Below, in pieces: positions 1 through 29,509 of a DNA stretch of 29,509 nucleotides. The stretch's first letter is position 1. The number at the start of each line of letters is the position of its first letter. Source of the DNA: a virus (Duplodnaviria; Heunggongvirae; Uroviricota; Caudoviricetes); IMG/VR virus record IMGVR_UViG_2718218398_000001, positions 1 to 29,509 of that record; one strand, given 5' to 3'. The translations under genes and the position numbers were made by a program. The notes under the pieces are model-generated. The model saw only the letters and a program-made list of their open reading frames with translations. It was not told where the DNA came from and ran no database searches.

Positions 1-2203
1 GAGCGTTATTTCTTTAATGAATCCCGTGATCCTGTCCAGCGCGAAATGGAGCAGGATAAGCTCATTAGCCGGGCAAAGCTGGTGCATGAGCAGCAGCGTT
101 TTAATCCGGACATGGTCATACTGGCGGACGTTAACGCCCAGCCTTCCCATATCAGCAAGCCGCTGATGCAAACGTATTGAATACTTCAGCAGCCCTGGGC
201 AGGCCAAAGGCTTATTCCCGCTATTTGCGTGAGACGATTAAACCATGTCTGGAACGACTAGAGCATGTACGCGACAGTATCTGCATCTTTCGTTTTATGG
301 CAAAATGAAGGCTGGACGGCCTGCTGATCTTGCCTGAAATGAGTCAGGATCAGGTGAAGCGCCTGTCTACCCTTGTTGCCGGCACATATGAGCATGTGCC
401 TTGATGCAGCTTGTGGTGATTTGTATGCCACCGATGACGTTAAGCCAGAAGAAATCCGCAAGACATGGGAAAGGGTGGCGGCGGAAACCCTGCGTCTGGA
501 TGTCATCCCTCCTGCGTTTGAGCAACTCCGCCGGAAAAGAAACCGCCGTAAACCCGTACCCTATGAACTCATTCCGGGTTCGCTGGCGCGTATGTTGTGC
601 GCCGACTGGTGGTATCGGAAATTATGGAAGATGCGTTGCGAATGGCGGGAAGAGCAGTTGCGTGCTGTTTGCCTGGTCAGCAAAAAAGCATCTCCCTATG
701 TCAGCTATGAAGCCGTGATGCATAAACGTGAGCAGCGCCGTAAGTCGCTGGAGTTTTTCCGTTCTCATGAACTGGTGAACGAAGACGGCGACACGCTGGA
801 TATGGAGGACGTGGTAAACGCCAGTAGTAGCAACCCGGCGCATCGCCGCAATGAGATGATGGCATGTGTTAAAGGTCTGGAGCTTATCGCGGAAATGCGC
901 GGTGACTGCGCCGTTTTCTACACCATCACCTGTCCGTCACGTTTCCATTCCACGCTAAATAACGGCAGGCCCCAACCCGACCTGGACAAATGCGACGGTA
1001 AGACAAAGCAGTGATTATCTGGTCGGCATGTTTGCTGCATTTCGTAAGGCGATGTACAAAGCCGGATTGCGCTGGTATGGCGTGCGGGTGGCTGAGCCGC
1101 ATCATGACGGTACAGTTCACTGGCACCTGTTGTGTTTTATGCGCAAAAAAGATCGCCGCGCCATTACTGCTTTGTTGCGTAAGTTTGCCATTCGTGAAGA
1201 CCGCGAGGAGCTGGGTAATAACACAGGACCACGCTTTAAGTCTGAGCTGATAAACCCGCGCAAAGGTACACCAACAAGCTACATCGCGAAATACATCAGT
1301 AAGAACATTGACGGGCGTGGTCTGGCTGGCGAGATCAGCAAGGAAACGGGTAAATCTCTGCGTGATAACGCTGAATACGTTAATGCCTGGGCGTCTCTGC
1401 ATCGTGTTCAGCAATTCCGCTTCTTTGGCATTCCGGGGCGTCAGGCTTACCGTGAACTGCGATTGCTGGCTGGTCAGGCGGCAAGGCAACAGGGTGACAA
1501 AAAAGCAGGTGCGCCGGTACTGGATAACCCGCGCCTTGATGCCATTCTGGCTGCAGCTGATGCTGGTTGCTTTGCCACCTACATCATGAAGCAGGGCGGC
1601 GTACTGGTTCCCCGTAAATATCACCTCATCAGAACCGCTTATGAAATCAACGAAGAGCCGACCGCCTATGGCGATCACGGTATTCGTATTTATGGCATCT
1701 GGTCACCCATTGCAGAGGGCAAGATCTGCACTCATGCAGTGAAGTGGAAAATGGTCCGTAAAGCCGTTGACGTTCAGGAGGCGGCAGCCGACCAGGGCGC
1801 TTGCGCCCCTTGGACTCGTGGCAATAACTGTCCCCTTGCTGAAAATTTGTACCAACAAGGGAAAGACAAATCAGCTGATGGGGATACCAGAACGGACATT
1901 ACCCGCATGGATGACAAGGAGTTGCACGATTACCTGCACAGTATGAGCAAAAAAGAGCGCCGGGACCTGGCAGCAAGGTTACGCCTGGTTAAACCGAAAC
2001 GGCGTAAAGACTACAAACAGCGAATTACATACCATCAGCGACTGCAGCTCGTCTATGAGCTGAAGTCCAGAGGATTTGATGGTAGCGAGAAAGAGGTCGA
2101 TTTACTCCTTCGCGGCGGCAGTATTCCGTCAGGAGCAGGCTTGCGTATCTTCTATCGGAACCAGCGTTTGTGGGAAGATGATAAGTGGCGGAACCTGTAT
2201 TAA
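1..2203 (+). pseudogene. A: Replication initiation protein gpA (rolling-circle HUH endonuclease), 5' partial and frame-disrupted
   Basis: ORFs 373..1014 and 1028..2203 are collinear with P2 gpA. HUH motif HWHLL at 1118..1132 (within [11 protein letters not shown]). Paired active-site tyrosines [12 protein letters not shown] starting at 1280. Window bases 1..372 appear to continue the same protein in shifting frames. At least one frame break near 1015..1028, probably more upstream. Confidence 0.85.
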
Positions 2204-2295
2204 TTACGCGGATTAACAATTCGTGCTCTTAATAATACCAGGCATATCAGGCTGATGAACGTAAAAAAACGTTTTACATCAGTAAGATTATTATA

Positions 2296-2315
2296 TACTG
2301 TAAATATAAACAGTG
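2296..2315. promoter_or_regulatory. LexA (SOS) box, CTGT-N8-ACAG
   Basis: 20-mer tactgtaaatataaacagtg matches the E. coli LexA consensus taCTGT(at)4ACAGta, with CTGT at 2298..2301 and ACAG at 2310..2313. Lies in AT-rich DNA upstream of a small ORF and a dinI-like gene. Confidence 0.6.
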
Positions 2316-2356
2316 GTTATGCATACAGTATTGCTTGTGGTGTCATAGGAGGAAAG

Positions 2357-2479
2357 ATGCAGGACTATTTTTTGGAGTCTTTGAAGCTCCAGCGCATTGA
2401 TTTTTTTCTTAAGCTTGTAGCGGCTAGTGAGTGTAGTGATGAAGAAAGGGGCTGGCTCTGCAGTGGGTTTCTGAATTGA
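2357..2479 (+). CDS. Hypothetical small protein (40 aa) between the SOS box and dinI-like gene
   Basis: ATG at 2357 preceded by a strong RBS AGGAGG (2349..2354). The six-frame ORF extends to 2255, but that start lies upstream of the LexA box. No recognisable motif. Confidence 0.35.
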   Translation: MQDYFLESLKLQRIDFFLKLVAASECSDEERGWLCSGFLN

Positions 2480-2554
2480 CTGATGAACTCATGGCAAAGA
2501 TCAGAACCCACGAATACAACCGCTCAATGGATGTCATCAGTTGAGGTGACTTTT

Positions 2555-2788
2555 ATGCGCATTGAAATAATGATCGATAAAGAGCAGAAGATTAGCCAGT
2601 CTACCCTGGACGCCCTTGAATCCGAGCTTTACCGCAATCTGCGCCCCCTGTATCCAAAAACGGTAATTCGTATCCGTAAAGGTAGCTCTAACGGTGTGGA
2701 ACTGACCGGACTGCAACTGGATGAAGAAAGAAAACAAGTGATGAAAATTATGCAGAAGGTGTGGGAAGACGACAGCTGGCTGCATTAA
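2555..2788 (+). CDS. dinI: DinI-family protein (DNA-damage-inducible protein I-like)
   Basis: 77-aa product MRIEIMIDKEQ...IDALESELYRNL...KVWEDDSWLH aligns by eye along its length with E. coli DinI (MRIEVTIAK...IDALAGELSRR...ETWESADDWF). RBS GAGGTGA lies upstream of the ATG at 2555. The six-frame ORF 2483..2788 contains it. Confidence 0.8.
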   Translation: MRIEIMIDKEQKISQSTLDALESELYRNLRPLYPKTVIRIRKGSSNGVELTGLQLDEERKQVMKIMQKVWEDDSWLH

Positions 2789-2792
2789 GAAA

Positions 2793-2839
2793 CGTTGCCC
2801 CCAAGAGGATTTATCCTGTTGGGGGGAGTTTGGGCAACG
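2793..2839. terminator. Long imperfect inverted repeat or stem-loop downstream of the dinI-like gene (possible terminator)
   Basis: cgttgccc (2793..2800) pairs with gggcaacg (2832..2839), with inner ccccaa/ttgggg and aggat/atcct pairings. No clean U-tract. Confidence 0.3.
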
Positions 2840-3276
2840 AGTGAAATGAGGTGTAAGGTGGGCGGTCATTTTGATAAGTGATCGTCCACTTTGTGTCAGA
2901 ACCTGATGTTTGTTGTACATTCGGACGAATAGGCGGCGTTGTTTGCTTTAAAAATAAAACAGGAACACTTTGAGAAAGTGAACAGGTGTATTTATTTGTT
3001 GCTGATGAATGAGAGTAACTCTAATTTGGATAATTAGCTTGATAATAGGTCAGACGAAAATAATATTCCAGCACACTTTTGGTCGCAACAGGCATTAGTT
3101 AATTTTAAGTGATAAATTTTTATCCATAAATTAACACTAGTGTGTCATCTAGCGAAACCGAATCGCTTTAACTCATAACTTGAAGTTGAATCAGTGGGGT
3201 AGCAGTAGGCATGCCGGAACTGATAAACTGTGCAGAAGGCTAAACATTCATTCACTCGTGAGATAGTAGCTAAATT

Positions 3277-4143
3277 ATGCAAAGAATTATTCCTGATAAA
3301 AATTGGTGGGAAAAAGAGCGTATTAATCGTAAAGCATCATCAATATGCCCATATGCTAGTTCATACAGATGTCCTCGATACTATCAGAGTGTAGTTTTGC
3401 TCTCAAGCATCAATGTGATAGCTGGTATGGCAACTAGGAAAGAAAAAGAGTTGGGCGAATTTTGGGAAAGAACCACTTTCTCATCTTTATGTGATGAAGA
3501 AGTCCCTACAGTTACTACAAAAGAATATGGCGGCCTTGCATCAGTTAGTAATTTTTGCCCAGAAATATCATTTAGATATTTACACTACTACGCCGATTAT
3601 ATGTGTAAATATGTTGATGAGATAGATCAGGACACTGGCAGGCGTATTGCGGAAAAAGATAATTTAGAAAATGATTGGAAATATACATGGATGTCAGTCA
3701 ATCCTAAATTTTATTTAGATTGCGATGTTTTTGAAAGTGTCAAAAATTTTAATGAAGAATTGGCTAGTGATTACTTAAAAAGATTGCACCCAAATATCGT
3801 TCAGCAAATAGATAGAATGAATAATTGCTTGGATAATAATGATCCGGCAGGTGCACTGCACGCAGCCTCTAATATTTTAGAAACTATGGCTAAGGAAATC
3901 ACTCAAAACCCGAATGTGGCAAATGAGTCATTGGGTGGTTTTTTTAAACAGTTCGAAAAAATGTCAAAATTACCTAAGAATCTTATTGATGCTGTTAAAG
4001 ATATTTATGATTTACGCAACAAATTACCTACTGCTGGACACGGAAGCTTGAACAAGCCTGAATTGACTATGGTAGAAGCTATAACTATTGCGGCAATGAC
4101 AAAGGCGATTTTAGAAATTGAATATCGAAGCAAAGCCATCTAA
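3277..4143 (+). CDS. Hypothetical protein (288 aa) with Cys-rich N-terminus and HEPN/Abi_C-like C-terminal signature
   Basis: Intact ORF in low-GC DNA. N-terminal cysteines (CPYASSYRCPRYY, FCPE, MCKY, LDCD). C-terminal helical region with LRNKLPTAGHG (R at 4015, H at 4039), resembling the RN...HG signature of Abi_C/DUF4145-type HEPN domains. The R-H spacing is longer than canonical Rx4-6H. Confidence 0.5.
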   Translation: MQRIIPDKNWWEKERINRKASSICPYASSYRCPRYYQSVVLLSSINVIAGMATRKEKELGEFWERTTFSSLCDEEVPTVTTKEYGGLASVSNFCPEISFRYLHYYADYMCKYVDEIDQDTGRRIAEKDNLENDWKYTWMSVNPKFYLDCDVFESVKNFNEELASDYLKRLHPNIVQQIDRMNNCLDNNDPAGALHAASNILETMAKEITQNPNVANESLGGFFKQFEKMSKLPKNLIDAVKDIYDLRNKLPTAGHGSLNKPELTMVEAITIAAMTKAILEIEYRSKAI

Positions 4144-4270
4144 CAAACCAAATTATGTGGTTCAAATTCCCGCTACACTTCTGTGTTGCCGCCAGCGTCT
4201 ACTTATCGCTGTGAGTTCAACGGGTGATGATGCGTTAGAGATCTCTGAATCGATTGAAGTCTAAGGTTGT

Positions 4271-4292
4271 CAGGGCTGTAACAGCAGCCCTG
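4271..4292. terminator. Stem-loop between convergent genes (candidate bidirectional terminator)
   Basis: cagggctg (4271..4278), loop taacag, cagccctg (4285..4292). Sits in the 250-bp gap between the 3' ends of 3277..4143 (+) and 4393..5047 (-). Confidence 0.35.
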
Positions 4293-4392
4293 TGTCATGA
4301 ATGGATTGCATATTAATTGACGAAGAACAGACTAATATCATCGATAGCTGTTTTCAAAAATAGACCAATAACAAACTGAGATGTTATCGTAT

Positions 4393-5047
4393 TCATTTCG
4401 ATGATTGATCCAGATGTGTATATAACCATTGAAAGAGTTTTCTAATTTTTGTGATAGTATCTTTTAAATAATTTAAGGAGATTATTATATTATTTTCATT
4501 GTTTAATGAAAGAGTAGGTGTTTTATCAATGATATTTTTTAAGGCTACAGCTGTGCTCATTTTTTTAATGTCTCCATTAGCATGAACTATGCAATTCCTT
4601 ACTTTGTTAAACTCTGTCATGAATTGCCACTCTTGTGACAGGCCAAAGTTTATATCCATTAATTTTGTTAAATATCTTTTTGCTTTGTGGATGCCATCAC
4701 CATTAAAATCGGTTACTGATATATTGGTGTTTACAATCCTTTGACATATATTGCAATAGTCGTTTAGGTTGTGCTCTAAGCATGAGTATAAAGATACCAA
4801 AGCAGATTTATTAAAAAATATTTGGTTGTATGTTAACTAAGAAATCATATTGCTCTGAATAATAGTCTTCTAAGTAATTAATATAATCGTCAGGAGCATT
4901 CTTTTTTTCATCTTCATATGCTTTTTTTAATTCCGCTAAGTCAACTCTGTTTTGGCCGCCTGCTCCTAGGATATATTTTTCGAAATCATCAATCTGCGCT
5001 TCAAGTGAATATCTTGATAGCTGTGCGAAAAGTTTGTATTTACTCAT
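4393..5047 (-). CDS. HEPN-like protein, candidate abortive-infection RNase; split into two ORFs (4811..5047 and 4393..4800) by a 1-nt frame change at an A6/T6 run
   Basis: Minus-strand ORFs of 78 aa and 135 aa are contiguous; the upstream one ends at a TAATAA double stop directly after a T6 run (plus-strand A6 at 4814..4819). Removing one T fuses them into about 215 aa (...NIQPNIF-NKSALVSLYSC...). Canonical HEPN motif R-N-C-I-V-H (Rx4H) encoded at 4582..4599, followed by a predicted helix. Confidence 0.5.
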
Positions 5048-5446
5048 CGGTATGCCATTCCTTTTTAATTATAAACCTTTGGGTTAAAAGGAGCTGAAAA
5101 TAGTAACTCATTATTTTTGTTTGTAAAGGGGGTATTGTTTTTACTAGATCAAGATAAAACAATGGGAATATCCGCTTTTCGCTCACAGCGGACTTTCATC
5201 TTTGTAAACCCGTATGATTAGCTTTTCAGCGGTCATTCAGATACGGATTTACGCTTCCCTTGGCTGTGCATGACTATGACGCATGAGATCGCATGATCGT
5301 TAGAGGATCGTTTTTGCTGAGGCCAGCCAGAACTGGCGTGCTTTTGCTTATGTCGTGCAGGTGCATGAAAACCACTACATAAAGCGGGCAGGCGTGGCGG
5401 GGATACGAGCGCGCGCTTATTACTTTGATAGTACTCGGGTTATAAT

Positions 5447-7129
5447 ATGGATGACTATCTATCTCGGAGAATGTACATGTCATTAGACTATATTAAAGAA
5501 CAGTTGTCAGACTTTATTTCATCTGCAGAACCTGAGGTAATGGCTATTCAGGGTGAGTGGGGGATTGGGAAAACCTATACTTGGAATGCTTTCTTAAAGG
5601 AAAATAAAAATAAGATTGCATTTAATAGATATAGTTACGTCTCTCTTTTTGGTGTTAATTCATTGGACGCATTAAAATACTCCATCTTTGAAAATACAAT
5701 TACGAAAGATTTCATTGGAAACAAACCTAATTTAAAAACAGCAACACAAAATGCAAAGGGGCTTCTTGAATCCTGCACTAGAAAGACCGCTCGTGTGTTA
5801 AAAGATACACCTTTTTTGAAAAATTTCACTACGACACTTGAGTCAATGTCATTTATGTCAATTACTAATGTTATTGTAGTCATAGATGACTTAGAAAGAC
5901 GTGGTAAAAATTTAGAAGTGAAAGATGTCTTAGGGTTGGTTTCTTTATTGAAAGAACAAAAAAATTGTAAGGTGGTTCTTTTACTTAATAACGGGACAAG
6001 TGGTATGGATGACTACTCCACTTATAAAGAAAAGGTTATTGATAGAGAGATTACCTATAATCCTACTCCAGAAGAATGTGCAGTTATAGCATATAAAAAT
6101 AATTCTGATGTTCATAAATTATTAAGCAAATACTCCATTTCCCTGGGTATTAAGAATATTAGGATACTGAAAAAAATAGAGCGGTTTTTGCTAGCCTTGT
6201 TACCTGGCATTAACGTTAATTTTGAAAAAATTGCAAATGAAGTCGCACACTCCTTAACTTTGTATTGTTGGAGTCATTACGCATTTACTCCAGATGGAGA
6301 TGTACCATCATTGGAGTATATTAGAAATATGAGAAATATCTATATGCGTGATGAAAAAGAGGATGGAAAAGAAAAAAAATGGCTTAATACTTTGCTTATA
6401 TATGATTATAAAAAAACAAACGAACTTGATGAAGTCCTTATAGACATGGTAAGGCATGGATATATTGATATGAACAATTTCCAAAGGCAAGTAAGTCTAA
6501 GGAATGATGAACTTATCCGTGATAGTAAGCGAGGTTCACTGTTTGAAGCATGGAAGCTTTTCTATAATTCATTTGAAGATAACCGAAATCAGGTTATTGA
6601 TAATCTATATCAAGCGGTGGTTGGTGGGATAGAGTATGTAACTCCAAGTGACTTGGATAGTGTTGTCGGACTGTATAGAGATTTAGGTGAAAATATTAAA
6701 GCAAGTGAATTAATAAGTAAATTTATTAATTACGGCAATGATGCTCTTAAGGAATATGTTCAATCTATTTACATGAATGTTCATCCTATAAAAGATGCTG
6801 AGTTAAAGTCAAAAATCCAAGATTATTCTACTACTTTAAATCTGGATGGTTCTATAAAGGATGTTCTAATAAAATTATCAAGTCAGAATGGTTGGTCTGA
6901 TAGGCACGAGGAAATATTGGATGCTGCCTCAGAGGATGACTACTATGATTTATTTAAAAAAGTCATTCTTGATGGTGGTGATTCAATAATAGCTACTGCT
7001 CTTAAGTTTGGTGGGTATAGCAATGGTTCAGAAAGAATGAAACGCATCGGAGAAAAAGCGAGAAATGCTTTGATAAGAATTGGAAATGAGTCGAGCATTA
7101 ATAAAATACGTGTTAGACGGTATTTGTAA
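5447..7129 (+). CDS. KAP-family P-loop NTPase (560 aa)
   Basis: Walker A GEWGIGKT (5552..5575). Walker B plus the KAP-characteristic hhhhDDLER/DR motif NVIVVIDDLERR (about 5870..5902). Long alpha-helical C-terminal region. Low-GC codon usage. The true start is more likely ATG 5477 (RBS GGAGA at 5466..5470) than 5447. Confidence 0.7.
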   Translation: MDDYLSRRMYMSLDYIKEQLSDFISSAEPEVMAIQGEWGIGKTYTWNAFLKENKNKIAFNRYSYVSLFGVNSLDALKYSIFENTITKDFIGNKPNLKTATQNAKGLLESCTRKTARVLKDTPFLKNFTTTLESMSFMSITNVIVVIDDLERRGKNLEVKDVLGLVSLLKEQKNCKVVLLLNNGTSGMDDYSTYKEKVIDREITYNPTPEECAVIAYKNNSDVHKLLSKYSISLGIKNIRILKKIERFLLALLPGINVNFEKIANEVAHSLTLYCWSHYAFTPDGDVPSLEYIRNMRNIYMRDEKEDGKEKKWLNTLLIYDYKKTNELDEVLIDMVRHGYIDMNNFQRQVSLRNDELIRDSKRGSLFEAWKLFYNSFEDNRNQVIDNLYQAVVGGIEYVTPSDLDSVVGLYRDLGENIKASELISKFINYGNDALKEYVQSIYMNVHPIKDAELKSKIQDYSTTLNLDGSIKDVLIKLSSQNGWSDRHEEILDAASEDDYYDLFKKVILDGGDSIIATALKFGGYSNGSERMKRIGEKARNALIRIGNESSINKIRVRRYL

Positions 7130-7134
7130 TTTGG

Positions 7135-7152
7135 GGGGGATTTTCATCCCCC
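7135..7152 (+). terminator. Hairpin terminator candidate after the KAP NTPase gene
   Basis: ggggga / ttttca / tccccc stem-loop 6 nt after the stop at 7127..7129, followed by a T-rich stretch (cacattttat). Confidence 0.4.
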
Positions 7153-7163
7153 ACACATTTTAT

Positions 7164-8195
7164 CTAATTCAATGAATAATCTTTGAAGGCTATTATTTTT
7201 TTCTTTAGCCAAATATTAATTTCTACAAGTCTTTTTTGTAAAGGAGTTAACTCATTTCGCACAAAAACGCAACTGGCTTTTTCTATATCCCCAAACCCCC
7301 CAACATTGTTTGGCATTATCCCCATCATCTGCGGCGGCACACGATGCGCCGCCATCATGTCATCCCGACTTACGTTCTTGATGTTAAGAAATTCATCCTT
7401 CGCCGCGACTTCTGACAATGGGATGATCTGAAGCCCGTCTTTTTTGCCGTTAGGCGAGTACATAAACAGGTTGCGGAAGTTGCCTGGACCTTTGGCACTT
7501 TTCATCGCGTTGCGGAGGTTGTTCACATCCTCCTGATTCTGCGCGGCGTCGGTCATGTACATGATGAAGCCTGCATGGCTGCCGTTGATGTAATACTTAC
7601 GGCGGAACAGCGTGGCGGACTCGTTGAGCAGGGCGGATGGAATGGCAGAAAGATAGCCGGGCAGGCCGTAGATCTCCTGGTTGATGTCCGGCTCCATCAG
7701 ATGAAAAATGCTGCCTTTCGTGAACTGATACGGCTGGGTTGTCATACCGTATTGCACAAACCAGTAGGTATCCAGGTCTAACCCACGTCGGGTGTATTTT
7801 GCCAGAGCAGGCTCAAGGGCGATAACTTCACCGAACCGGTTCGTGCGTTTCTCCAGGTAAGCGTTACCAAATACCAGATAGTCCTGCACAAAACGTGAAA
7901 AAGCCTGCTGGCTGAGAAGCGGGTGAGGGATGTAGGTACTGGTCAGAATGTTGCATTTCACCGCAATTGGTGAACTGTGATGCACGGCAGCGCGGAAGGT
8001 TCGCGCCAGTCCGTCAAAACTCACTGGCGGCTCATACCAGCGATCTGTCTGTACGCATTCTACATAGTCCAGCAGTTCGCGGCGGTCCAGAACAGGAACG
8101 GGATCGCCAAAGCTGAATGCTTCGGCTGAAGTCTGGCTTTTGTGCTGAATCTGGTTCGTCGACACAGCGCGGTTCTTCTTACTCTTTCCCATCAA
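7164..8195 (-). CDS. Q: Portal protein gpQ
   Basis: 343-aa product, the same size as P2 gpQ and collinear with it by recall. Lies directly upstream of terminase P on the same strand, with the 4-bp overlap typical of P2 Q/P. The last ~45 codons are encoded in AT-rich DNA. Confidence 0.85.
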   Translation of the reverse strand: MMGKSKKNRAVSTNQIQHKSQTSAEAFSFGDPVPVLDRRELLDYVECVQTDRWYEPPVSFDGLARTFRAAVHHSSPIAVKCNILTSTYIPHPLLSQQAFSRFVQDYLVFGNAYLEKRTNRFGEVIALEPALAKYTRRGLDLDTYWFVQYGMTTQPYQFTKGSIFHLMEPDINQEIYGLPGYLSAIPSALLNESATLFRRKYYINGSHAGFIMYMTDAAQNQEDVNNLRNAMKSAKGPGNFRNLFMYSPNGKKDGLQIIPLSEVAAKDEFLNIKNVSRDDMMAAHRVPPQMMGIMPNNVGGFGDIEKASCVFVRNELTPLQKRLVEINIWLKKKIIAFKDYSLN

Positions 8196-9959
8196 AAAAT
8201 CTCCACAATATTGCTGGTATTGGCGGACTCGCCCTGCAGCGGTTCGTTAAACAGTGCGTGCATTGTTGCCCACGCCAGATCGGCATGGCTGGCTTCTTCG
8301 CTGCGGCTGGCTTCATAGGTCGGGCGGTTGCCGCTGGCGGTGGTGGCGCGACGGATTGCCATAAATGACTGCGCTATGTCGGTGTGTCCGGCGTCAAACT
8401 CCAGACGGCGGTGACTGATAATGTCGTAGGCCTTGAGTACCAGGGCATTTTTAACGTTGGGGTTGTAGACAAACTCCCGGACGGCAGGAAAAAACGCTTT
8501 CACGTTCTCGTAAACCCCGTGACCGACGCCGGTTGAGTCGATACCGATGTATGTCACGTTGTACTGTTCAGTCAGTTTTTTGATGGCGTCAGCCTGGGCG
8601 CGGAAGTCCATCCCGCGCCACTGGTGACGCTCAAGAATGCGGAACTTACCGCCCGGCACGGCTGGCGGTGCCACCACCACGCATCCGGCGCTGTCGCCGT
8701 TCTGCGTACCTTTTGCCGGGTCATAACCGATCCACACTTCGCGCCAGCCAAACGGGCGCAGCGCCAGTGCATGAAAGTCGGTCCAGACTTCCCAGCTGTC
8801 CACCATGCACGCCTGTAGTTCGCTGAGCGGGAACACGGACGCGAGATCGTCCACAAACTCGCACATCAGCAGGTTCTGGTATTCGTCCGGGCTGTATTCC
8901 ATGCGCAACTGGTCAAGGTCGAACAGGTTACAGCCACCGCGCACCGCATCTTCCACGGTGACTATCTGGCGGTATTGCCCGTCAGCGCACAGCAGGCCGG
9001 GGGCCAGATTGCTGTGGGACAGATCAATGTCCACCTTGTCGGCTTTGTTGCGTCCACGGTTGAACAGCGCACCGGACCAGAACGGATAAGCACTGTGGGT
9101 CAGGCTGGATGGTGTGGAAAAAATAGGTCTGCCGCCATTTCTTGTGAATAGCCATACCGGAAGCCACTTTGCGTAGCTCCTGAAATTTCGGTATCCAGAA
9201 ATATTCATCCAGATACAGGTTGCCGTGATAACTCTGGGCCGTGCGGGCATTGGTGCCGAGGAAGTAAAGCGTGGCCCCGTTAGGAAGCACCATCGGATCG
9301 CCTTTCAGTTCCACATCCACTTCTTTGGCGAAGTCGATGATGTACTGCTTAAAGACGTGGGCCTGTGCCTTACTGGCGGAAAGGAAAATCTGGTTACGTC
9401 CGGTAAGCAGGGCGTCAATCAGGGCTTCACGGGCAAAGTAAAAGGTCGCGCCGATCTGGCGTGACTTCAGCAGGTTGCGGATGCGGTTGGTTTTTCCGGC
9501 TTCCCACCAGTGGCGCTGGTAGTTGAACATGGAGGAATGGAAGATTTCTTCCAGCTTCTCAATCTGTTCATCGGTGAAGACATTCTTTTCCGGCTGACGG
9601 CGCGGGCCTTTGTTGCGGTTGGCGACGTTAGGGTTTAAGTCAGCTTCGTTGCCGCCATTGTTAAACTTGCCGATCCGCGCGTGGCGCTCAGACTGGCGCG
9701 CCAGCAGGTCAATCTCTTTGAAATCTTTCCCTTCTTTGTGCTCCTTCATAATGAGCTGGCAGTAGCGTGCGGCGGTGGTGAGCTGCATCTGATCCAGCGG
9801 CCCATAGTCACCCCACTTGTCGCGTTTTTTCCAGCTGTGAACGGTTGCAACTTTCTCGCCCAGCATTTCAGCAATGCGGGCGACGCGGTATCCCTGAAAG
9901 TACAGCAGCATGGCCTGCCGACGGGGATCGAGATCTGCGGGTGTCAGTGTGGTGTTCAT
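8192..9959 (-). pseudogene. P: Terminase large (ATPase) subunit gpP, frame-disrupted
   Basis: Two overlapping minus-strand ORFs (9024..9959 and 8192..9250) together span 1768 bp, about 589 aa, the size of P2 gpP. One frame change in the 9024..9250 overlap. Confidence 0.85.
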
Positions 9960-10950: not shown

Positions 10951-12017
10951 ATGAAGAAGAATACCCGTTTTGCTTTTAACGCTTACCTGCAGCAGCTGGC
11001 GCGTCTGAACGGTGTGGCAGTTGAAGAACTGTCCAGCAAGTTCACTGTGGAGCCGTCTGTGCAGCAGACGCTGGAAGACCAGATCCAGCAGTCCGCCGCT
11101 TTCCTGACGCTGATTAACGTCACGCCCAGTGACTGAGCAGTCCGGTCAGCTGCTGGGGCTGGGTGTTGGCAGCACCATTGCCGGAACCACTGATACCACC
11201 GCGAAAGAGCGTGAACCTGTCCGATCCGACGCTGATGGTCGATGTGGAATACAAATGTGAACAGACCAACTTTTGACACGGTGCTGACCTACGCGAAGCT
11301 GGACCTGTGGGCGAAGTTTCAGGATTTCCAGGTGCGTATCCGTGACGGCCATCGTGAAACGTCAGGCACTGGACCGCATCATGATCGGCTTTAAACGGCG
11401 TGAAGCGTGCGAAAACCTCCAACCGTAGTGAAAACCCCGCTGCTGCAGGATGTGAACAAAGGCTGGCTGCAGAAAATCCGTGAGGATGCACCGGATCACG
11501 TCATGGGCAGCACCACCACGGGTGGTGAAACCACACCGGGCGCGGTGAAAGTCGGCAAAGGTGGAGAATATGCCAACCTGGACGCCGTGGTGATGGATGC
11601 TGTCAATGAGCTTATCGACGTGGTCTACCAGGACGATGACGATCTGGTGGTGATTTGCGGTCGTGAGCTGCTGTCTGACAAATATTTCCCGCTGGTCAAC
11701 AAAGAGCAGGAAAACAGTGAAAAACTGGCTGCCGATATGAATCATCAGTCAGAAACGCATGGGTGGCCTGCAGGCCGTGCGTGCGCCGTTCTTCCCGCCG
11801 AATGCGCTGCTGATCACCCCGTCTGGATAACCTGTCCATTTACTGGCAGGAGGACACCCGCCGCCGTTCGGTTATCGACAACCCGAAACGTGACCGGATT
11901 GAAAACTTTGAATCCGTTAACGAAGCCTATGTGGTTGAGGACTACCGCTGCGCAGCACTGGTGGAAAACATCCAGATTGGCGACTTCAGCGCCGCCGCCG
12001 CAGAAGCCGGAGCATAA
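10951..12017 (+). pseudogene. N: Major capsid protein gpN, multiply frame-disrupted
   Basis: N-terminus MKKNTRFAFNAYL...KFTVEPSVQQTL (10951..11136) and a later segment VKVGKGGEYANLDAVVMDAVNELIDVVYQDDDDLVVICGRELLSDKYFPLVNKEQENSEKLAAD match P2 gpN in different frames. At least four frame changes between 11136 and 11880. Stop at 12015..12017. Confidence 0.85.
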
Positions 12018-12020
12018 ACC

Positions 12021-12662
12021 ATGAGCCTGAGTCCCGCACGGCAGCATCGCCTGCGCGTTCAGGCTGAACAGGCCGCCCGCGAGGGCGGCAGTGTTCGCCA
12101 CGCGTCGGGCTATGACCTGATGCTGCTGCAACTGGCGGAAGACCGCCGCCGTCTCAAGGGCGTTCAGTCCACGGTCAAAAAAGCGGAAATCAAGGTGGAG
12201 CTGCTGCCGAAGTACGCCGCCTGGGCAGAGGGTGTCCTGGCTGCCGGAGGCGCTCAACAGGATGACGTGCTGATGTACGTGATGCTGTGGCGCATTGATG
12301 CCGGAGATTATGCCGGGGCGCTGGAGATCGGGCGTCATGCCCTGCGTCATGGCTGGGTGATGCCGCTGGGTAACCGCAACGTGCAGACCGTGCTGGCAGA
12401 GGAAATGGCAGATGCAGCCCAGAGCGCAATGCTTGCCGCCACCGGCTTTGATGCCGATCTGTTGCTGCAGACGCTGGAGCTGACAGACGGTATGGATATG
12501 CCGGACCAGTCACGGGCGCGTCTGCATAAAGCGATTGGCGCTGTCCTGAGTGAAAACAATCCGGCGTCCGCCCTTAATCATCTCAACCATGCGTTACAGC
12601 TCGATCCCCGCTGTGGCGTGAAAAAAAGACAAACAGCAGCTGGAGCGCAGACTGCGCAATGA
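12021..12662 (+). CDS. M: Terminase small (endonuclease) subunit gpM
   Basis: 213-aa product collinear with P2 gpM (…DDVLMYVMLWRIDAGDYAGALEIGRHALRHGW…). The extreme C-terminus may carry a 1-nt indel in the A-run at 12614..12620. Confidence 0.8.
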   Translation: MSLSPARQHRLRVQAEQAAREGGSVRHASGYDLMLLQLAEDRRRLKGVQSTVKKAEIKVELLPKYAAWAEGVLAAGGAQQDDVLMYVMLWRIDAGDYAGALEIGRHALRHGWVMPLGNRNVQTVLAEEMADAAQSAMLAATGFDADLLLQTLELTDGMDMPDQSRARLHKAIGAVLSENNPASALNHLNHALQLDPRCGVKKRQTAAGAQTAQ

Positions 12663-12767
12663 CAGCCGCTGACAGAACGTGCCCCCGCGCACGGGCGGCA
12701 CGGGGTGGCGAAAGGCACTGCCACATCAAAACCCCGTCCACCGCCCTCTATTTCAGGAGAAAGCAGC

Positions 12768-13232
12768 ATGAAGTTTGTTGCGCCAGAACAGGCACCGGAA
12801 CAGGCGGAAATCATCAGGAATACGCCGTTCTGGCCTGATGTGGACCTGTCGGAGTTTCGCAGTGTCATGCGCACTGACGGCACGGTGACGCAGCCGCGTT
12901 TAAAGCAGGTTGCGCTGTCGGCAATTTCGGAGGTCAACGCAGAGCTGTATGAGTTTCGCAGACGTCAGCAGATGCTGGGGTATGCGTCGCTGGCTGAGGT
13001 TCCGGCGGAACAGCTGGACGGCAAAAGTGAGCGCATCCAGCACTATTTCAACGCGGTTTACTGCTGGGCACGCGCCATGCTCAACGAACGATACCAGGAC
13101 TATGACGCCACGGCATCCGGTGTGAAGCGAGGCGAGGAACTGGCGGAATCCAGCGGTGATTTGTGGCGTGACGCCCGCTGGGCCATCAGCCGGGTGCAGG
13201 ATGCGCCGCACTGCACAGTGGAGCTTATCTGA
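12768..13232 (+). CDS. L: Head completion/stabilisation protein gpL
   Basis: ATG 12768 with RBS AGGAG. Product MKFVAPEQAPE... in conserved P2 position after M. The six-frame ORF start at 12705 is probably an upstream extension. Confidence 0.75.
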   Translation: MKFVAPEQAPEQAEIIRNTPFWPDVDLSEFRSVMRTDGTVTQPRLKQVALSAISEVNAELYEFRRRQQMLGYASLAEVPAEQLDGKSERIQHYFNAVYCWARAMLNERYQDYDATASGVKRGEELAESSGDLWRDARWAISRVQDAPHCTVELI

Positions 13233-13435
13233 TGAAAGTGCGTGCGCATCAGTATGACACGGTGGACGCGCTTTGCTGGCGTCATTACGGGCGCACGCAG
13301 GGTGTCACGGAGCAGGTACTGAAGGCAAATCCGGGGCTTGCCGAATATGGCCCCTTTTTACCTCACGGGCTGCAGGTGGAGCTGCCGGACATTCCGACCA
13401 CCACCACCGTGCAGACCGTCCAGCTATGGGACTGA
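13232..13435 (+). CDS. X: Tail protein gpX
   Basis: 67-aa product MKVRAHQYDTVDALCWRHYGRT..., the size and sequence pattern of P2 gpX. Its start overlaps the L stop (ATGA). Confidence 0.8.
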   Translation: MKVRAHQYDTVDALCWRHYGRTQGVTEQVLKANPGLAEYGPFLPHGLQVELPDIPTTTTVQTVQLWD

Positions 13436-13438
13436 ATT

Positions 13439-13654
13439 ATGACGCTTGAGCGAATCAGCGCCTTTATCACGTACTGCATCGCCGTTGTGCTGGCCTGGCT
13501 GGGCGATTTGTCCATCAAGGATGCCTCAACGCTGGGCGGCCTGATGATTGGTGTGCTGATGCTGGCTATCAACTGGTACTACAAACACAAAGCCTACCAG
13601 CTTCTGCGCGACGGGCAGATCTCGCGGGAGGACTATGAATCCATCAATCGTTAA
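13439..13654 (+). CDS. Holin (small two-TMD, pinholin-like)
   Basis: 71 aa with two hydrophobic helices and a charged C-terminus. Immediately upstream of, and overlapping, a SAR-type endolysin. Confidence 0.7.
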   Translation: MTLERISAFITYCIAVVLAWLGDLSIKDASTLGGLMIGVLMLAINWYYKHKAYQLLRDGQISREDYESINR

Positions 13655-14147
13655 ACGCTGCCTTGTCGGGGCCGTGCTGGCTATTGCTGCCACGCTGCCG
13701 GGTTTTCAGCAGCTTCACACCTCCGTGGAGGGGCTGAAACTGATTGCAGATTACGAAGGCTGTCGTCTGCAGCCGTATCAGTGCAGCGCGGGCGTCTGGA
13801 CCGACGGCATTGGTAACACGTCAGGCGTCATTCCCGGCAAAACCATTACGGAACGACAGGCAGCTGAAGGGCTGATCTCCAACGTGCTACGAGTGGAGCG
13901 GGCGATGGAAAGGTGTGTGAAGCAACAGCCGCCGCAGAAGGTGTATGACGCTACGGTGTCGTTTGCCTTCAACGTGGGGACGGGCAATGCCTGTAGTTCC
14001 ACGCTGGTGAAATTGCTCAATCAGCGGCGCTGGGCGGATGCATGCCGACAGTTGCCGCGCTGGGTTTATGTGAAAGGTGTTTTTAATCAGGGGCTGGATA
14101 ACCGCCGTGCGCGGGAGATGGCCTGGTGTTTACAGGGAGCAAACTGA
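13635..14147 (+). CDS. K: Endolysin, GH24 (T4-type) lysozyme with N-terminal SAR signal-anchor
   Basis: Catalytic spacing E-x8-C-x5-T (DYEGCRLQPYQCSAGVWT). G/A-rich weakly hydrophobic N-terminal segment CLVGAVLAIAATLPG, typical of SAR endolysins. Confidence 0.8.
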   Translation: MNPSIVKRCLVGAVLAIAATLPGFQQLHTSVEGLKLIADYEGCRLQPYQCSAGVWTDGIGNTSGVIPGKTITERQAAEGLISNVLRVERAMERCVKQQPPQKVYDATVSFAFNVGTGNACSSTLVKLLNQRRWADACRQLPRWVYVKGVFNQGLDNRRAREMAWCLQGAN

Positions 14148-14148
14148 A

Positions 14149-14526
14149 ATGAAAAAGAAATTAATCAGCGGACTGTTTCTGATGTTATGGATGGCGCTGT
14201 TAATCGCAGCAATGGTGTATCCGCAGGGGATTTTTCCGGTACTGGCAGCGTCCGGCGTTTGGGTAGCCTGTTTGCTGACATGGGCGGTAATTCCGGTAGC
14301 ACTGGCTGCGTTAATTAAGAATGGCCCGCTCTGGCAGGAGTTAAGGGCATCTTTGCTGAAGACAATTACCCGAAAAGAAAACGTATTTACCAGTTGGGTG
14401 ATGCGATTGCTGATTGTTGTAAGTCTCGCCTGGACGGGGTGGGCTATTACCCTGGTCTTTTATCTACTGACCGTTATTGCCTTCTGGATCACCCGTAATC
14501 AGATGGCGCAACAGGTAGCAGCATGA
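14149..14526 (+). CDS. lysA: LysA-like membrane protein (lysis timing/antiholin-like)
   Basis: ATG 14149 with RBS GGGAG. 125-aa product with about four predicted TM helices, in the P2 lysA position. Confidence 0.6.
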   Translation: MKKKLISGLFLMLWMALLIAAMVYPQGIFPVLAASGVWVACLLTWAVIPVALAALIKNGPLWQELRASLLKTITRKENVFTSWVMRLLIVVSLAWTGWAITLVFYLLTVIAFWITRNQMAQQVAA

Positions 14527-14951
14527 ACCGGTTGCTGCTGGTTGTGCTGACGTTATTACTGGCGGCGCTGGGCTGGCAGACGTGGCGGCTGGCTGATGCC
14601 AGCCAGACCATCAGCACGCAGGCAGACGAGCTGCAGAGCAAAAGCCAGGCACTGGCAAAGAGCAATAGCCAGCTTATCAGCCTGTCCATTCTGACTGAAA
14701 CCAATAACCGGGAGCAGGCGCGGCTCTATGCCGAAGCAGAACAGACCAGCACGCTGCTGAGACAACGACAACACCGGATCGAGGAACTGAAACGTGAGAA
14801 CGAGGATTTACGCCGCTGGGCTGATACTCCTTTGCCTGCTGACATTATCCGGCTGCGGAAACGTCCGGCACTCACCGGAGGTATGGCTTACCGTCAGTGG
14901 TTGTCCGCGAGTGACGCCGTGTCGGCTGGATCAGGCAACGCCGCGCACTAA
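14523..14951 (+). CDS. lysB: LysB, Rz-like inner-membrane spanin (i-spanin)
   Basis: N-terminal TMD (LLLVVLTLLLAALGW) followed by a coiled-coil periplasmic domain. P2 lysB position. Confidence 0.75.
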   Translation: MNRLLLVVLTLLLAALGWQTWRLADASQTISTQADELQSKSQALAKSNSQLISLSILTETNNREQARLYAEAEQTSTLLRQRQHRIEELKRENEDLRRWADTPLPADIIRLRKRPALTGGMAYRQWLSASDAVSAGSGNAAH

Positions 14952-15084
14952 CGGTGATCTGAACGCGTTGCTGGATGAAACGGAGGCCGCCTGGGCGGTC
15001 TGTGCAGACAAAGTGGACATGATTATTGCGTGTCAGGAGCGAAACAGTGAACAAACCACAATCCCTGCGCCACGCCCTCAATAA
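14794..15084 (+). CDS. lysC: LysC, Rz1-like outer-membrane lipoprotein spanin (o-spanin), overlapping lysB in the +1 frame
   Basis: Signal peptide with lipobox LTLSGC, in a different frame from lysB and extending past its stop, which is the P2 lysB/lysC architecture. Confidence 0.7.
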   Translation: MRTRIYAAGLILLCLLTLSGCGNVRHSPEVWLTVSGCPRVTPCRLDQATPRTNGDLNALLDETEAAWAVCADKVDMIIACQERNSEQTTIPAPRPQ

Positions 15085-15917: not shown

Positions 15918-15921
15918 TCTT

Positions 15922-15939: not shown

Positions 15940-15985
15940 AGTTGCAGCACTGCCGCCTTTCTTCCCCTGATGGCAACCTTTCCCT

Positions 15986-19792: not shown

Positions 19793-19794
19793 TT

Positions 19795-20235
19795 ATGAAA
19801 TATTTGTATGTTGATAATCTGGCGTACCCTTATGCCCTCCAGTCTGTTTACGCTGCAAAAGGCCAATGGCCCGAAGGTAAAGGCGTGGATATAGACGAAG
19901 CTATTTTCAGGGAATATTTCCATGATACGCCGCCTGACGGTAAGTACAGAATTACCGGAGACGATGGAATGCCAGCATGGGCAGATGTTCCACCGCCAAC
20001 ACGTGAAGAACAAATTGCATCAGCCGAAACTAAAAAGCAGCAATTGATTAATCAGGCCAACGATTATATGAACAGTAGACAATGGGCTGGTAAAGCGGCT
20101 ATTGGTCGTCTGAAAGGTGAGGAACTGGCGCAATATAATTTGTGGCTGGATTATCTGGACGCACTGGAGCTGGTCGATACTTCCAGTGCACCAGATATTG
20201 AATGGCCTACTCCTCCGGCAGTTCAGGCCAGATGA
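19795..20235 (+). CDS. Tail fibre assembly chaperone (Tfa, gpG-like), orientation-specific copy
   Basis: 146-aa product with the conserved Tfa C-terminus (...LWLDYLDALELVDTSSAPDIEWP). Immediately follows H. Confidence 0.8.
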   Translation: MKYLYVDNLAYPYALQSVYAAKGQWPEGKGVDIDEAIFREYFHDTPPDGKYRITGDDGMPAWADVPPPTREEQIASAETKKQQLINQANDYMNSRQWAGKAAIGRLKGEELAQYNLWLDYLDALELVDTSSAPDIEWPTPPAVQAR

Positions 20236-20809
20236 CATCCGGCGCGGTGCTGATATCTGTTGCCGTCACCGCGTCAATGTAATCCAGCACAGCGTTAAGC
20301 CGGGTTGTTTCTGCCTGCGTCAGTTTCCGCCCGGCCTGTAATTTCAGTTGAATCAGACTAATGGAAGCCATTGCAGTATCAATCAGTGACTGACGCTGTG
20401 CTTCTGCCGCGTCTACTGCGGCGCGATGCTGTGCCTCAGTATCGGTCACCCATTTCTCACCATCCCATTTATCGTATGGCGTTAATGGGGCGATAGTGGT
20501 TGTATTTTCGGGGTAATCACCCGGAGTTGTGATTTCTTTGGTGTCTCCCGTTTCGGTGTTATAGACGATTTCACCGCGATGGTCTGGCACATATTCCCAT
20601 GAGTTTAAATCTGCCGAACGGCAGATTGCATAACCAGCCTTATGTATACCAGGTTCATCCAGACAGGAATATGCCGGGATACCAACACCAACGGCAAGAT
20701 ATTCATTTGAAGTGGAAATATATTCCCGAGTTTCACCATCATAGCTATAGACGGTAATATTCCCCGCCTTCGTGGCAATAAGCTCGCTATTTAATACAGC
20801 GTTATCCAT
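20207..20809 (-). CDS. Alternative tail fibre assembly chaperone (Tfa') for the inverted orientation
   Basis: 200-aa minus-strand product with a Tfa-type C-terminus (...LNAVLDYIDAVTATDISTAPDVIWPELPEE), converging on and overlapping the plus-strand tfa by 29 bp. Confidence 0.75.
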   Translation of the reverse strand: MDNAVLNSELIATKAGNITVYSYDGETREYISTSNEYLAVGVGIPAYSCLDEPGIHKAGYAICRSADLNSWEYVPDHRGEIVYNTETGDTKEITTPGDYPENTTTIAPLTPYDKWDGEKWVTDTEAQHRAAVDAAEAQRQSLIDTAMASISLIQLKLQAGRKLTQAETTRLNAVLDYIDAVTATDISTAPDVIWPELPEE

Positions 20810-21316
20810 TATGCAGCTCTCACAATATAATTAAATGACGTATTACGTGGTCGTACTGATATCCATGCACTATAAAAACCGTCTTCTGCTGTTCTCTGCG
20901 TTCCCGTAATGGAGTTATCAGACGAAGCTGGAACATAGTTACTGCTGTCGCCAGCTTTAGAATTAGCAGGTATCCCGCTTGTTTGTACTTTATCGGCGGA
21001 AGCAAATGCTATCCCCACCTTGACAGAGGTTGTTGTATCAACCCCGTAATAATCCTGTAACGCTGTACGAATAAAAGTTGCATCCTGACCACTGAGTAGT
21101 GATCGTCCACTGTCTACACCGCGTCCATCATCCCAGCCACGAATAAACTCACCGCGTAAATCAGGCAATTTATTTGTCGGGTAAGCCTTTGCCAGTTCCG
21201 GGTATTCTTCAGCAGAAAAAGCTGCACCATTGCATTTCAACCAGCCTGTCGGTGGTGTAGCTGAAGGCCACGGAACAGGCACACCAACCGGTAATGCTGA
21301 ACCTTCTCCCAAACCA
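20809..21316 (-). CDS. Alternative tail fibre C-terminal (receptor-binding) segment, promoterless, expressed only after inversion
   Basis: The minus-strand ORF encodes ...LGLGEGSALPVGVPVPWP..., sharing the LGLGE junction with H at the crossover site. Its stop overlaps the Tfa' start (TAATG). The six-frame ORF extends to 21357, but sequence beyond the site is outside the segment. Confidence 0.7.
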
Positions 21317-21329
21317 ACGTTTAAGAAAA
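21304..21329. other. Inversion crossover site (hix/gix/cix-like, 26 bp), inverted partner of 19446..19471
   Basis: ttctcccaaacc AA cgtttaagaaaa: the central dinucleotide AA is complementary to the TT of the partner site. Lies just upstream of the invertase gene. Confidence 0.75.
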
Positions 21330-21384
21330 TGCAGAGGTAACAGCTAACTGGCATCATCTCCGGTTTTTATTCAGGGGGATGATC

Positions 21385-21951
21385 ATGCTTATTGGCTATG
21401 TACGCGTGTCAACAAATGACCAGAACACCGATTTGCAACGTAATGCACTGAACTGCGCGGGATGTGAGCGGATTTTTGAGGACAAAATCAGTGGCACTAA
21501 GTCCGACAGACCGGGGCTGAAAAAACTACTCAGGACACTATCGGCAGGAGACACGCTGGTTGTCTGGAAGCTGGACAGGTTGGGGCGCAGTATGCGGCAT
21601 CTTGTTACGCTGATAGAAGAGTTGCGCCAGCGTGGTGTGAATTTCAGAAGCCTGACTGACAGTATTGATACCAGTACCCCAATGGGCCGTTTCTTTTTTC
21701 ATGTCATGGGTGCCCTGGCTGAAATGGAACGCGAACTGATAGTTGAACGTACCAGGGCAGGGCTGGCTGCAGCTCGTGCCAAAGGCAGAGTAGGTGGACG
21801 CCGTCCTAAGTTGACCACCGAACAGTGGGCACAGATTGGGCGTTTACTCGAGGCCGGAGAATCAAGACAGCGTATTGCACTGATTTTTGATGTAGGCGTT
21901 TCTACCATTTATAGAAAATTTCCGGCAAATAAGATCAATGAATCCCCCTGA
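21385..21951 (+). CDS. pin: Serine recombinase, DNA invertase of the Gin/Hin/Cin/Pin family
   Basis: MLIGYVRVSTNDQNTDLQRNAL... is near-identical at the N-terminus to Gin/Cin/Pin, including catalytic Ser in YVRVSTNDQ. C-terminal HTH (GVSTIYRKF). Start is probably ATG 21385; the ORF opens at 21379. Confidence 0.9.
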   Translation: MLIGYVRVSTNDQNTDLQRNALNCAGCERIFEDKISGTKSDRPGLKKLLRTLSAGDTLVVWKLDRLGRSMRHLVTLIEELRQRGVNFRSLTDSIDTSTPMGRFFFHVMGALAEMERELIVERTRAGLAAARAKGRVGGRRPKLTTEQWAQIGRLLEAGESRQRIALIFDVGVSTIYRKFPANKINESP

Positions 21952-28566: not shown

Positions 28567-29305
28567 AAGCACACGGATTATCCCAGCTATCTGGTTGCGG
28601 ATATTAATCCTGATTTAATCAACCTCTATAAAAAGGTTGCCGCTGATTGTGAATCGTTTATATCTCGCGCCAGAGTTTTATTTTAAGGAAGCAAACAGGG
28701 AGGTGGCTTATTACAACATAAGGCAGGAGTTTAATTACTCAACTGAAATTACTGATTTCATGAAAGCGGTATATTTCCTGTATCTCAATCGTCACGGTTA
28801 CCGTGGGTTATGTCGCTATAACAAGAGCGGGCATTTCAACATTCCCTACGGTAATTATAAAAATCCGTATTTCCCTGAAAAAGAAATTTGCGCATTTGCA
28901 GAGAAAGCCCAACGAGCAACGTTTATCTGCGCCAGCTTTGATGAAACGCTGGCGATGTTGAAGGCGGGGGATGTGGTGTATTGCGATCCGCCGTATGACG
29001 GTACGTTTTCCAGCTATCACACTGATGGTTTCACTGAAGATGACCAGTATCACCTGGCATCCGTTCTTGAACATCGGTCATCAGAAGGACATCCGGTCAT
29101 TGTTTCTAACAGTGACACATCCCTGATCCGTTCGCTGTATCGCAATTTTACTCACCACTACATCAAGGCAAAACGCAGCATCGGCGTAGCAGCTGGTGAG
29201 AGTTCTGCAACAGAAATCATCGCTGTTTTCTGGGGCGCGCTGCTGGGTGGATTTGATCCTTCGCGTGGCGTGGATAGTTCTGCCGTGTACGGAGTACGTG
29301 CATGA
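28567..29305 (+). pseudogene. dam: DNA adenine methyltransferase (Dam family) fragment, 5'-truncated and frame-disrupted
   Basis: TDYPSYLVADINPDLINLYKK (from about 28567) aligns to E. coli Dam NTDFSRYILADINSDLISLY, i.e. about 45 N-terminal residues including the SAM-binding FxGxG motif are missing. Downstream has [18 protein letters not shown] and catalytic DPPY (VYCDPPYDG). Frame changes near 28670 and near the 3' end. Confidence 0.75.
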
Positions 29306-29499
29306 GACATGCTGATATGAACAACTGCAGCGGCTTTAACGAGGCCGCCGCAGCATTCTCATGGAACAGCCCGAAAAAGGCGATTAACCCTTATCTGGAC
29401 CCGGCGGAAGTTGCGCCGGTTTCTGCGCTTTCAAACCTGATCACTCTGTACGCTGCCGATAACAAGCAGGAACAAACTGCGCCGCGAGGCACTGAGTGA
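29302..29499 (+). CDS. Hypothetical protein (65 aa)
   Basis: ORF whose ATG overlaps the dam stop (ATGA). No recognisable motif. Confidence 0.3.
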
Positions 29500-29509
29500 T
29501 CAGGTCTGG

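Follow-up and report, generated by a model that had tools for sequence, protein, structure and literature searches.

A probable cos packaging site between two cargo bays in a Fels-2-type phage genome

The window analyzed here, the whole 29,509 nucleotides of IMG/VR virus record IMGVR_UViG_2718218398_000001, carries in the midst of AT-rich accessory genes a short GC-rich block, and the question is what this block is and why different cargo lies on either side of it. The original prediction, made from the letters of the sequence, was that it resembles the cohesive-end (cos) sequence of phages P2 and 186. The window is a P2-like genome of the Fels-2 type, 95 to 97% identical to CP019275 (an E. 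coli circular phage-like record), Klebsiella phage KP12, and Escherichia phage 500465-1. Its genes follow the order gpA, DinI, cargo, cos, cargo, Q, P, and then O, N, M, and L; fragments of gpA occupy 373..2203 and DinI occupies 2483..2788, followed by the block and by Q and P (Table 1), and the order around cos is the same as that in P2, 186, and Fels-2. Farther along, in the tail-fibre assembly segment 20176..21320, the parts 20176..20853 and 21119..21320 match the E. coli E308 prophage on the opposite strand, and the adjoining gene at 21379..21951 is colinear with the E308 "recombinase family protein"; the segment resembles a Gin/Cin-type invertible host-range segment in the other orientation.

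Table 1. Coordinates of the cos block, its parts, and the neighboring genes in the window.
Feature	Position	Strand	Remarks
Left bay	3277..5047	.	288-aa gene and 217-aa HEPN-like gene
288-aa gene of left bay	3277..4143	+	Abi_C, E=0.0017, below Pfam cut-off
217-aa HEPN-like gene of left bay	4393..5047	-	PADLOC RTasHEPN, E=1.1e-5 (intact PEC422 copy); RNxxxH motif
Complete conserved cos block (putative)	5266..5416	+	125 bp left of top-strand nick, 19-nt overhang, 7 bp right
Three direct GCATG repeats	5268, 5281, 5291 (within 5268..5295)	+	Offsets -123, -110, -100 from nick
GC-rich inverted repeat followed by TTTT, terminator-like	5322..5346	+	Between distal repeats and core
Left half of cos core, including GCATGAAAACC and AAAGCGGGCA	5359..5390	+	Left part of published P2/P4 "55-bp core"
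Fourth GCATG repeat, inside core	5363..5367	+	Offset -28
Predicted 19-nt 5' cohesive end, GGCGTGGCGGGGATACGAG	5391..5409	+	Same columns as P2 cosL 1..19 and 186 cos 1..19
Right border CGCGCGC	5410..5416	+	TGCGCGC in P2 and 186, CGCGCGC in P4
Right bay, KAP-family P-loop NTPase gene	5477..7129	+	Pfam, E=1.3e-8; PADLOC candidate defence family PDC-S49, E=2.2e-25
Portal gene, gpQ homologue, read toward cos	7164..8192	-	Pfam Phage_portal, E=3.7e-16
Terminase large subunit gene, gpP homologue	8192..9959	-	Pfam Terminase_5, Terminase_6N, Terminase_6C over two ORFs
Terminase small (endonuclease) subunit gene, gpM homologue	12021..12662	+	Pfam Phage_term_smal, E=1.5e-40

Resemblance of the block to P2-family cos

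The stretch 5391..5410 reads ggcgtggcggggatacgagc and is followed by gcgcgc, just as had been reported, and the P2 cohesive end used there for the comparison is correct: cosL 1..19 of NC_001895 is GGCGAGGCGGGGAAAGCAC, in agreement with PMC3931495. In the record of 186, the annotated cos 1..19 is GGCGTGGCGGGGAAAGCAT, and both PMC3931495 and PMC5261728 quote the P2 and 186 ends as the phage records have them; sequencing of the P2 end goes back to Padmanabhan et al. 1974, as cited in PMC3931495. The first 13 nucleotides match P2 at 12 positions, as claimed, and 186 at all 13, and over the full 5391..5409 the ungapped matches are 14/19 and 15/19, respectively. The G-rich start GGCG(A/T)GGCGGGG, used to recognize such cohesive ends, opens 5391..5409, and the pattern GGCGWGGCGGGGAWA has a single exact match in the window, where 0.17 matches are expected by chance with up to two mismatches. 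Among closer relatives the agreement is complete. All 19 nucleotides recur in Salmonella phage SEN8, whose record starts with them as a "putative cos site", in Escherichia phage Cartapus, where a 59-nt "putative cos site" feature contains them, and at the same position in Fels-2, while the overhang plus CGCGCGC is invariant in Fels-2, KP12, CP019275, and E. coli PEC422, PSJ-29, and E308.

The circular cos junctions of P2, 186, and P4 were rebuilt by joining the record ends, and the alignment was anchored at the annotated nick. The window aligns with them gap-free, the left flank GCAT(G/T)AAAACC...AAAG(C/T)GGGC(A/G), the 19-nt end, and the right flank (C/T)GCGCGC all coinciding. In addition, an nhmmer profile of 151 bp, made from the cos regions of P2, 186, and P4 only, matched the window once, at 5267..5416 with E=1.3e-17, and the alignment and the profile together bear out the predicted likeness to the P2/186 cos. 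The profile had no second match in the window at E<=10, so the concern that cos might be found elsewhere is removed. A second cos at 29262 was considered and rejected, since the candidate has two mismatches, no cos-like flanks, and no nhmmer match. An unsystematic look at IMG/VR contigs, many of which are isolate-genome prophages, turned up none ending exactly at cos.

The GC-rich patch had been described as about 240 bp long. Its richness in GC holds, at 0.498 over 5200..5440, but its size does not, because the conserved unit is the 151 bp of 5266..5416. The GC content of this unit is 0.55, equal to that of the phage backbone (0.55), against 0.32 in the left flank (4393..5265) and 0.33 in the right (5417..7129). 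BLAST matches to 80 phage records run from about 5266 to 5416-5420, the homology shared with over 150 relatives breaks off at about 5266 and about 5416, and 36 distinct enterobacterial copies lose conservation sharply at both edges. Relative to columns conserved in at least 90% of those 36 copies, the window departs at 5325 and 5355 only; both changes are common to E. coli PEC422, whose block is 100% identical to that of the window, with no indels between the two. Fels-2-type relatives match at 134-139 of the 151 positions and at 57-58 of 58 in the core. Of 5426 complete E. coli genomes, 1253 have the block, most of them without annotating it. On the right, CGCGCGC directly follows the overhang in 133 of the 157 loci that have this overhang (38 from species-representative genomes and 119 from IMG/VR), and in every relative inspected the sequences diverge immediately after it.

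The DNA just outside these limits has some features of its own. The approximately 95 bp to the left (5171..5265) is 83-88% identical to a subset of IMG/VR relatives that otherwise differ in their left cargo, holds a terminator-like hairpin at 5178..5192, and may be the conserved end-piece of one left-bay cassette family. To the right of CGCGCGC, a motif like GGTGAAATGGTGAAAAT lies at +27..+50 in several loci of our survey (L043, L048, L053, L054, SEN8 as L012 19..60, and L029/L038/Cartapus). It occurs in relatives whose cos-to-Q interval is nearly or wholly free of cargo, and in some that do have cargo; the window, E308, and P4 have no clear copy, and the motif seems dispensable for cos function.

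Within the block, the interval from about -32 to +26 hardly differs between P2 and P4, and over it the window matches P2 and 186 at 45/58 positions each, P4 at 44/58, and Fels-2 at 58/58, all ungapped. A 55-bp core common to P2 and P4 is attributed to Ziermann & Calendar 1990 where that work is cited in PMC5694545 and PMC3931495. Copies of GCAT[G/T] occur at offsets common to the window, SEN8, Fels-2, 186, and P2 (the first being at -122 in P2), and P4 has those at -110, -100, and -28 only. All copies are on one strand, the sequence between them has diverged, and the four in the block compare with 0.4 expected (Poisson P=8e-4). By analogy with cosB, the GCATG repeats are candidate recognition elements for the terminase (gpM).

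A terminator scan of the block gave GCCAG-CCAGAA-CTGGC, then GTGCTTTTGC. The consensus of the relatives at this hairpin is GCCCGCCAGAACTGGCGGGCTTTT, from which the window differs at 5325, as does PEC422, and the alignment places GC-rich inverted repeats at about the same position in 186 and P4. Two stem mismatches separate the hairpin of the window from the consensus, and a compensatory change was rejected because the two stem changes particular to the window do not fall in register. A structured RNA or a known RNA family was likewise rejected, as 4000..7500 has no Rfam match at E<=1 and single-strand folding is no better than that of shuffled sequence (z=+1.1); the lack of both an Rfam match and excess folding energy fits a site bound by protein as double-stranded DNA.

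Cargo bays on the two sides of the block

The KAP NTPase gene that had been predicted between cos and Q is there (5447/5477..7129) and has the Pfam KAP_NTPase domain. For the HEPN genes predicted on the other side, the position holds and the assignment to HEPN is less firm, with the Abi_C and RTasHEPN matches listed in Table 1. Cargo does flank cos on both sides, which proved to be the usual arrangement in the clade and not special to the window. The candidate anti-phage content of the bays consists of domain matches, namely PDC-S49, which is a candidate system, RTasHEPN, and Abi_C, which falls below the cut-off, and the 217-aa HEPN-like gene is split in the window by an extra A at 4813. In E. 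coli E308 and PSJ-29 the same KAP gene follows cos, under the annotation "P-loop NTPase fold protein". A consensus scan found no promoter for this gene on the plus strand in 5417..5476; by eye, TTATTA-18 nt-TATAAT is a possible one.

Comparison with complete genomes separates the two sides. The window from 2100 to 5417 is 99.5% identical to PEC422, whose right cargo differs, and the arrangement cos–KAP NTPase–Q recurs with other left cargo in PSJ-29 and in E308, the latter having this layout in an apparently intact prophage at ssrA. Several complete E. coli genomes have the left (2100..5417) or the right (5417..7163) module, each at 97-99.5% identity, and no phage, plasmid, or complete E. coli record has both cargo modules together. 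The window is thus a new combination of known cassettes, and the two bays exchange independently.

The survey of loci with this overhang gives the range of such cargo. Of the 109 loci with Q in view, 13 have less than 300 bp between cos and Q, 19 have 300-1000 bp, and 77 have 1000 bp or more (96 have at least 500 bp); the median is 1682 bp, the range is 150-3528 bp, and the window has 1754 bp; a gap below 300 bp is the P2/186-like state without cargo. The distance from A to cos is 482-3797 bp, and 3187 bp in the window. The flanks are diverse, the 132 right flanks falling into 88 clusters and the 150 left flanks into 67. Variable gpA-gpQ content adjoining cos against a conserved backbone, the mark of a hotspot, is what the loci with this cos have.

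Two Chitinimonas genomes (Betaproteobacteria) have four to five copies each of the exact 26-mer GGCGTGGCGGGGATACGAGCGCGCGC. The loci behind this observation are L050 (Chitinimonas taiwanensis NZ_FPKR01000011.1; ~3.7 kb either side of cos, oriented 3706), L019-L022, L025, L039, and L042. At L050, an AlpA gene and a gene for a primase zinc-ribbon protein lie on one side, and those for an AAA_15/AAA_21 ATPase and a DUF4062 protein lie on the other; no portal gene lies nearby, and the arrangement corresponds to a P4-like satellite whose defence bay adjoins cos. If the 26-mer truly belongs to P4-like satellites of such distant hosts, the packaging signal would be common to helpers and satellites and to Gammaproteobacteria and Betaproteobacteria.

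State of this copy and proposed cleavage

We are highly confident that a Fels-2-type phage of the P2 family (Peduoviridae) has its cos packaging site at 5266..5416, because the gap-free alignment to P2, 186, and P4, the single profile match, the identity with SEN8 and Cartapus, and the repeats in register all point to it, and because gpM, gpP, and Q stand in the P2 gene order, homology ends at the block edges, and the cargo modules are exchanged. The site, the family, and the layout are already known and very common. Both genes of the cognate terminase are present, each with a 1-bp insertion that might be a sequencing error. In the gpP gene, a +1 insertion in an A run at 9118, placed against four relatives, splits the reading frame, and an insertion at 12621 alters the C-terminus of gpM, which otherwise agrees with E308 gpM at 199 of 202 residues (99%). 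The intact E308 orthologues are 49% (gpM) and 63% (gpP) identical to those of P2, a divergence that is in line with the diverged cos (core 45/58).

These insertions are part of a larger pattern that bears on whether the site still works. Set against the intact prophage of E. coli E308, the window shows 57 indels with lengths not divisible by three (e.g., at 170, 193, 277-309, 379, 970, 2445, 4813, 9118, 10281, 11125-11817, 12621, and 23009-28573), and they shift the frames of gpA, the HEPN-like gene (4813), gpP (9118), gpO (10281), gpN (eight indels, 11125-11817), gpM (12621), and many tail genes. Furthermore, 28573..29509, which contains the dam methylase gene and the start of gpA, runs gap-free into position 1; as this segment is colinear with the sequence just upstream of the window start, the window is a circular permutation. 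At 28573-28576, ACGG microhomology links a point inside the tail gene D to a point inside the dam methylase gene, with the loss of the final ~370 nt of D and of ogr, att, int, and the repressor region (CI, cII, fil). The D–dam junction is absent from phage, plasmid, and E. coli records and represents either a circle with a genuine deletion or a chimera of the assembly. In the form given by the record, the element could not package itself.

The frameshifts in gpP, gpO, gpN, and gpM among the 57 indels, together with the loss of ogr, att, int, and the repressor region, would be expected if the site were cos by descent but a functionally dead relic, in an element incapable of making terminase, capsid, or late activator, usable only with the terminase of a related helper phage supplied in trans. 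The indels themselves speak for another origin, as nearly all are 1 bp, mostly one extra base, many lie in short homopolymer runs, and they are clustered, with none from about 12700 to 20000; by their type and clustering they look more like errors of sequencing or assembly than like natural decay. In addition, the cos block is free of indels and identical to that of PEC422, and a site intact in cis stays usable by a helper. A dead relic therefore seems to us rather unlikely, although it is the most serious of the alternatives, and we infer that the site may be cleaved in this copy too.

For the active cos site, the following sequence of events can be proposed. The terminase, made up of gpM and gpP, would recognize the ~125 bp that lie on the left side of the cut, with the four in-register GCAT[G/T] repeats and the core AAAACC...AAAGCGGGCA as its probable targets, and would place staggered nicks at 5390/5391 on the top strand and 5409/5410 on the bottom strand to leave 19-nt 5' overhangs of the predicted sequence, a cut geometry that is the same as the one stated in the 186 record. 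After injection, the ends would anneal and ligation would restore the circle. The overhangs differ from P2 and 186 at four of their last six bases (positions 14, 16, 17, and 19 in the comparison with 186), and for this reason the length of 19 nt and the bottom-strand nick are extrapolated. With ...TACGAG in place of ...AAGCA(C/T), the ends would not anneal with those of P2, 186, or P4.

These four differences would also suit a cos variant that is cut elsewhere, or to another overhang length than in P2 and 186, so that the end is not exactly 5391..5409, and the predicted ends of other P2-like phages do vary, e.g., 20 nt in Burkholderia phage AP3 (PMC5247547). The sequence flanking the nicks is, however, kept with P2, 186, and P4, as GGGC(A/G) before and GGCG after the left nick and as (C/T)GCGCGC after the right one, and cohesive ends of the ...ACGAG type, predicted or reported, are 19 nt long in Smp131 (one base different) and in SEN4/SEN5 (PMC3931495, PMC5261728); a variant of this kind is accordingly improbable. 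As for the patch being leftover backbone with a terminator or promoter between two islands and only a coincidental likeness to cos, which the terminator-like hairpin and the lack of annotation in most genome records might suggest, the score of the profile built solely from reference cos regions, the register kept over 151 bp including the 19-nt end, and the location with respect to Q, P, and A, which P2 and 186 share, effectively refute it, and we give it virtually no credence.

Returning to the cos site, its asymmetry and its edges have consequences for the whole genome. Since the conserved sequence lies nearly all on one side of the nick, the recognition (cosB-like) half would form the right end of the mature genome, and we infer the direction of packaging along with it. 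Only 7 bp to the right and 125 bp to the left of the overhang would be constrained; the flanking DNA beyond is therefore free to vary, which would give two independent cargo bays, one between cos and Q and the other between the DinI-like gene and cos. The bays would be the two extreme ends of the mature linear genome, which the location of cos fixes, with the KAP NTPase gene at the extreme left and the HEPN-like genes at the extreme right. In more than 150 loci, variable DNA starts at -125 and +26, which amounts to a natural deletion map. We regard it as an evenly balanced proposition that the 151-bp block is the minimal functional unit, that it serves as the fixed hinge of independent bays, and that the ends or the block might anchor recombination, all three taken jointly.

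What is added here to earlier knowledge is modest: exact natural boundaries at -125/+26, and a view of the hotspot as two bays that hinge on one fixed block of 151 bp. The composition profile of the region would be explained by a GC-normal island of 151 bp in ~5 kb of AT-rich cargo. The site is not a new kind of element. Prophage annotation could profit from it, since most of the 1253 E. coli genomes with the block leave it unannotated, and so could the design of cos-plasmid or transduction tools for Fels-2-type helpers.

Relation to known cos sites and cargo hotspots

The cos of phage lambda consists of cosN and of cosB with its R repeats and bend site, and a terminase of two subunits cuts it, producing 5' cohesive ends. 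The lambda ends are 12 nt long against 19 nt here, the repeat-bearing side is the left end in lambda and the right end of the map in P2, and the P2-family terminase uses monomeric circles as its substrate. Lambda cos is thus an analogy of mechanism only, in that a nicking site has repeats and a spacer on one side, and it has no sequence similarity to the block. The cos sites of P2, 186, and P4, on the other hand, share with the window an architecture that is in register throughout, with repeats at approximately -123, -110, -100, and -28, AAAACC...AAGCGGGC, GGCG(A/T)GGCGGGGA, and (C/T)GCGCGC. In P2 and 186 the site lies upstream of Q and P, both read toward cos, as in the window; Q ends within ~190 bp of cos in these two phages, with no gene between, whereas the window has the KAP NTPase gene there.

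The closest counterparts are the cos sites of Fels-2 and SEN8 (Felsduovirus) and of Cartapus (Elveevirus), which have the same overhang plus CGCGCGC at the same place between the DinI-side accessory genes and Q, and, like the window, all have cargo between cos and Q. They differ from the window in the flanking cargo and in a few spacer and hairpin substitutions, and in nothing else. Encapsidated Cartapus DNA has been found in the virome of E. coli LF82 (PMC9928086).

Cargo next to cos was recorded early in this family. PMC5694545, where it turns to the region from cos to Q, already calls this position a hotspot and cites the retrons Ec67/Ec86 (Dodd & Egan 1996) and ctx of phiCTX (Nakayama 1999) as residents of it. 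In their account of P2-like phages, Rousset et al. 2022 (PMC9122126) define the hotspot between gpA and gpQ and speculate that the cohesive ends drive exchange in it, and the definition is repeated in a 2026 follow-up (PMC13586616). The window agrees with this gpA-gpQ hotspot in that AT-rich, variable accessory genes with candidate defence domains abut cos. The hotspot passages of these papers describe one gpA-gpQ hotspot adjoining cos, whereas here there are two bays with a fixed block of 151 bp between them, and the published "hotspot" would accordingly be a pair of bays parted by an immovable packaging signal.
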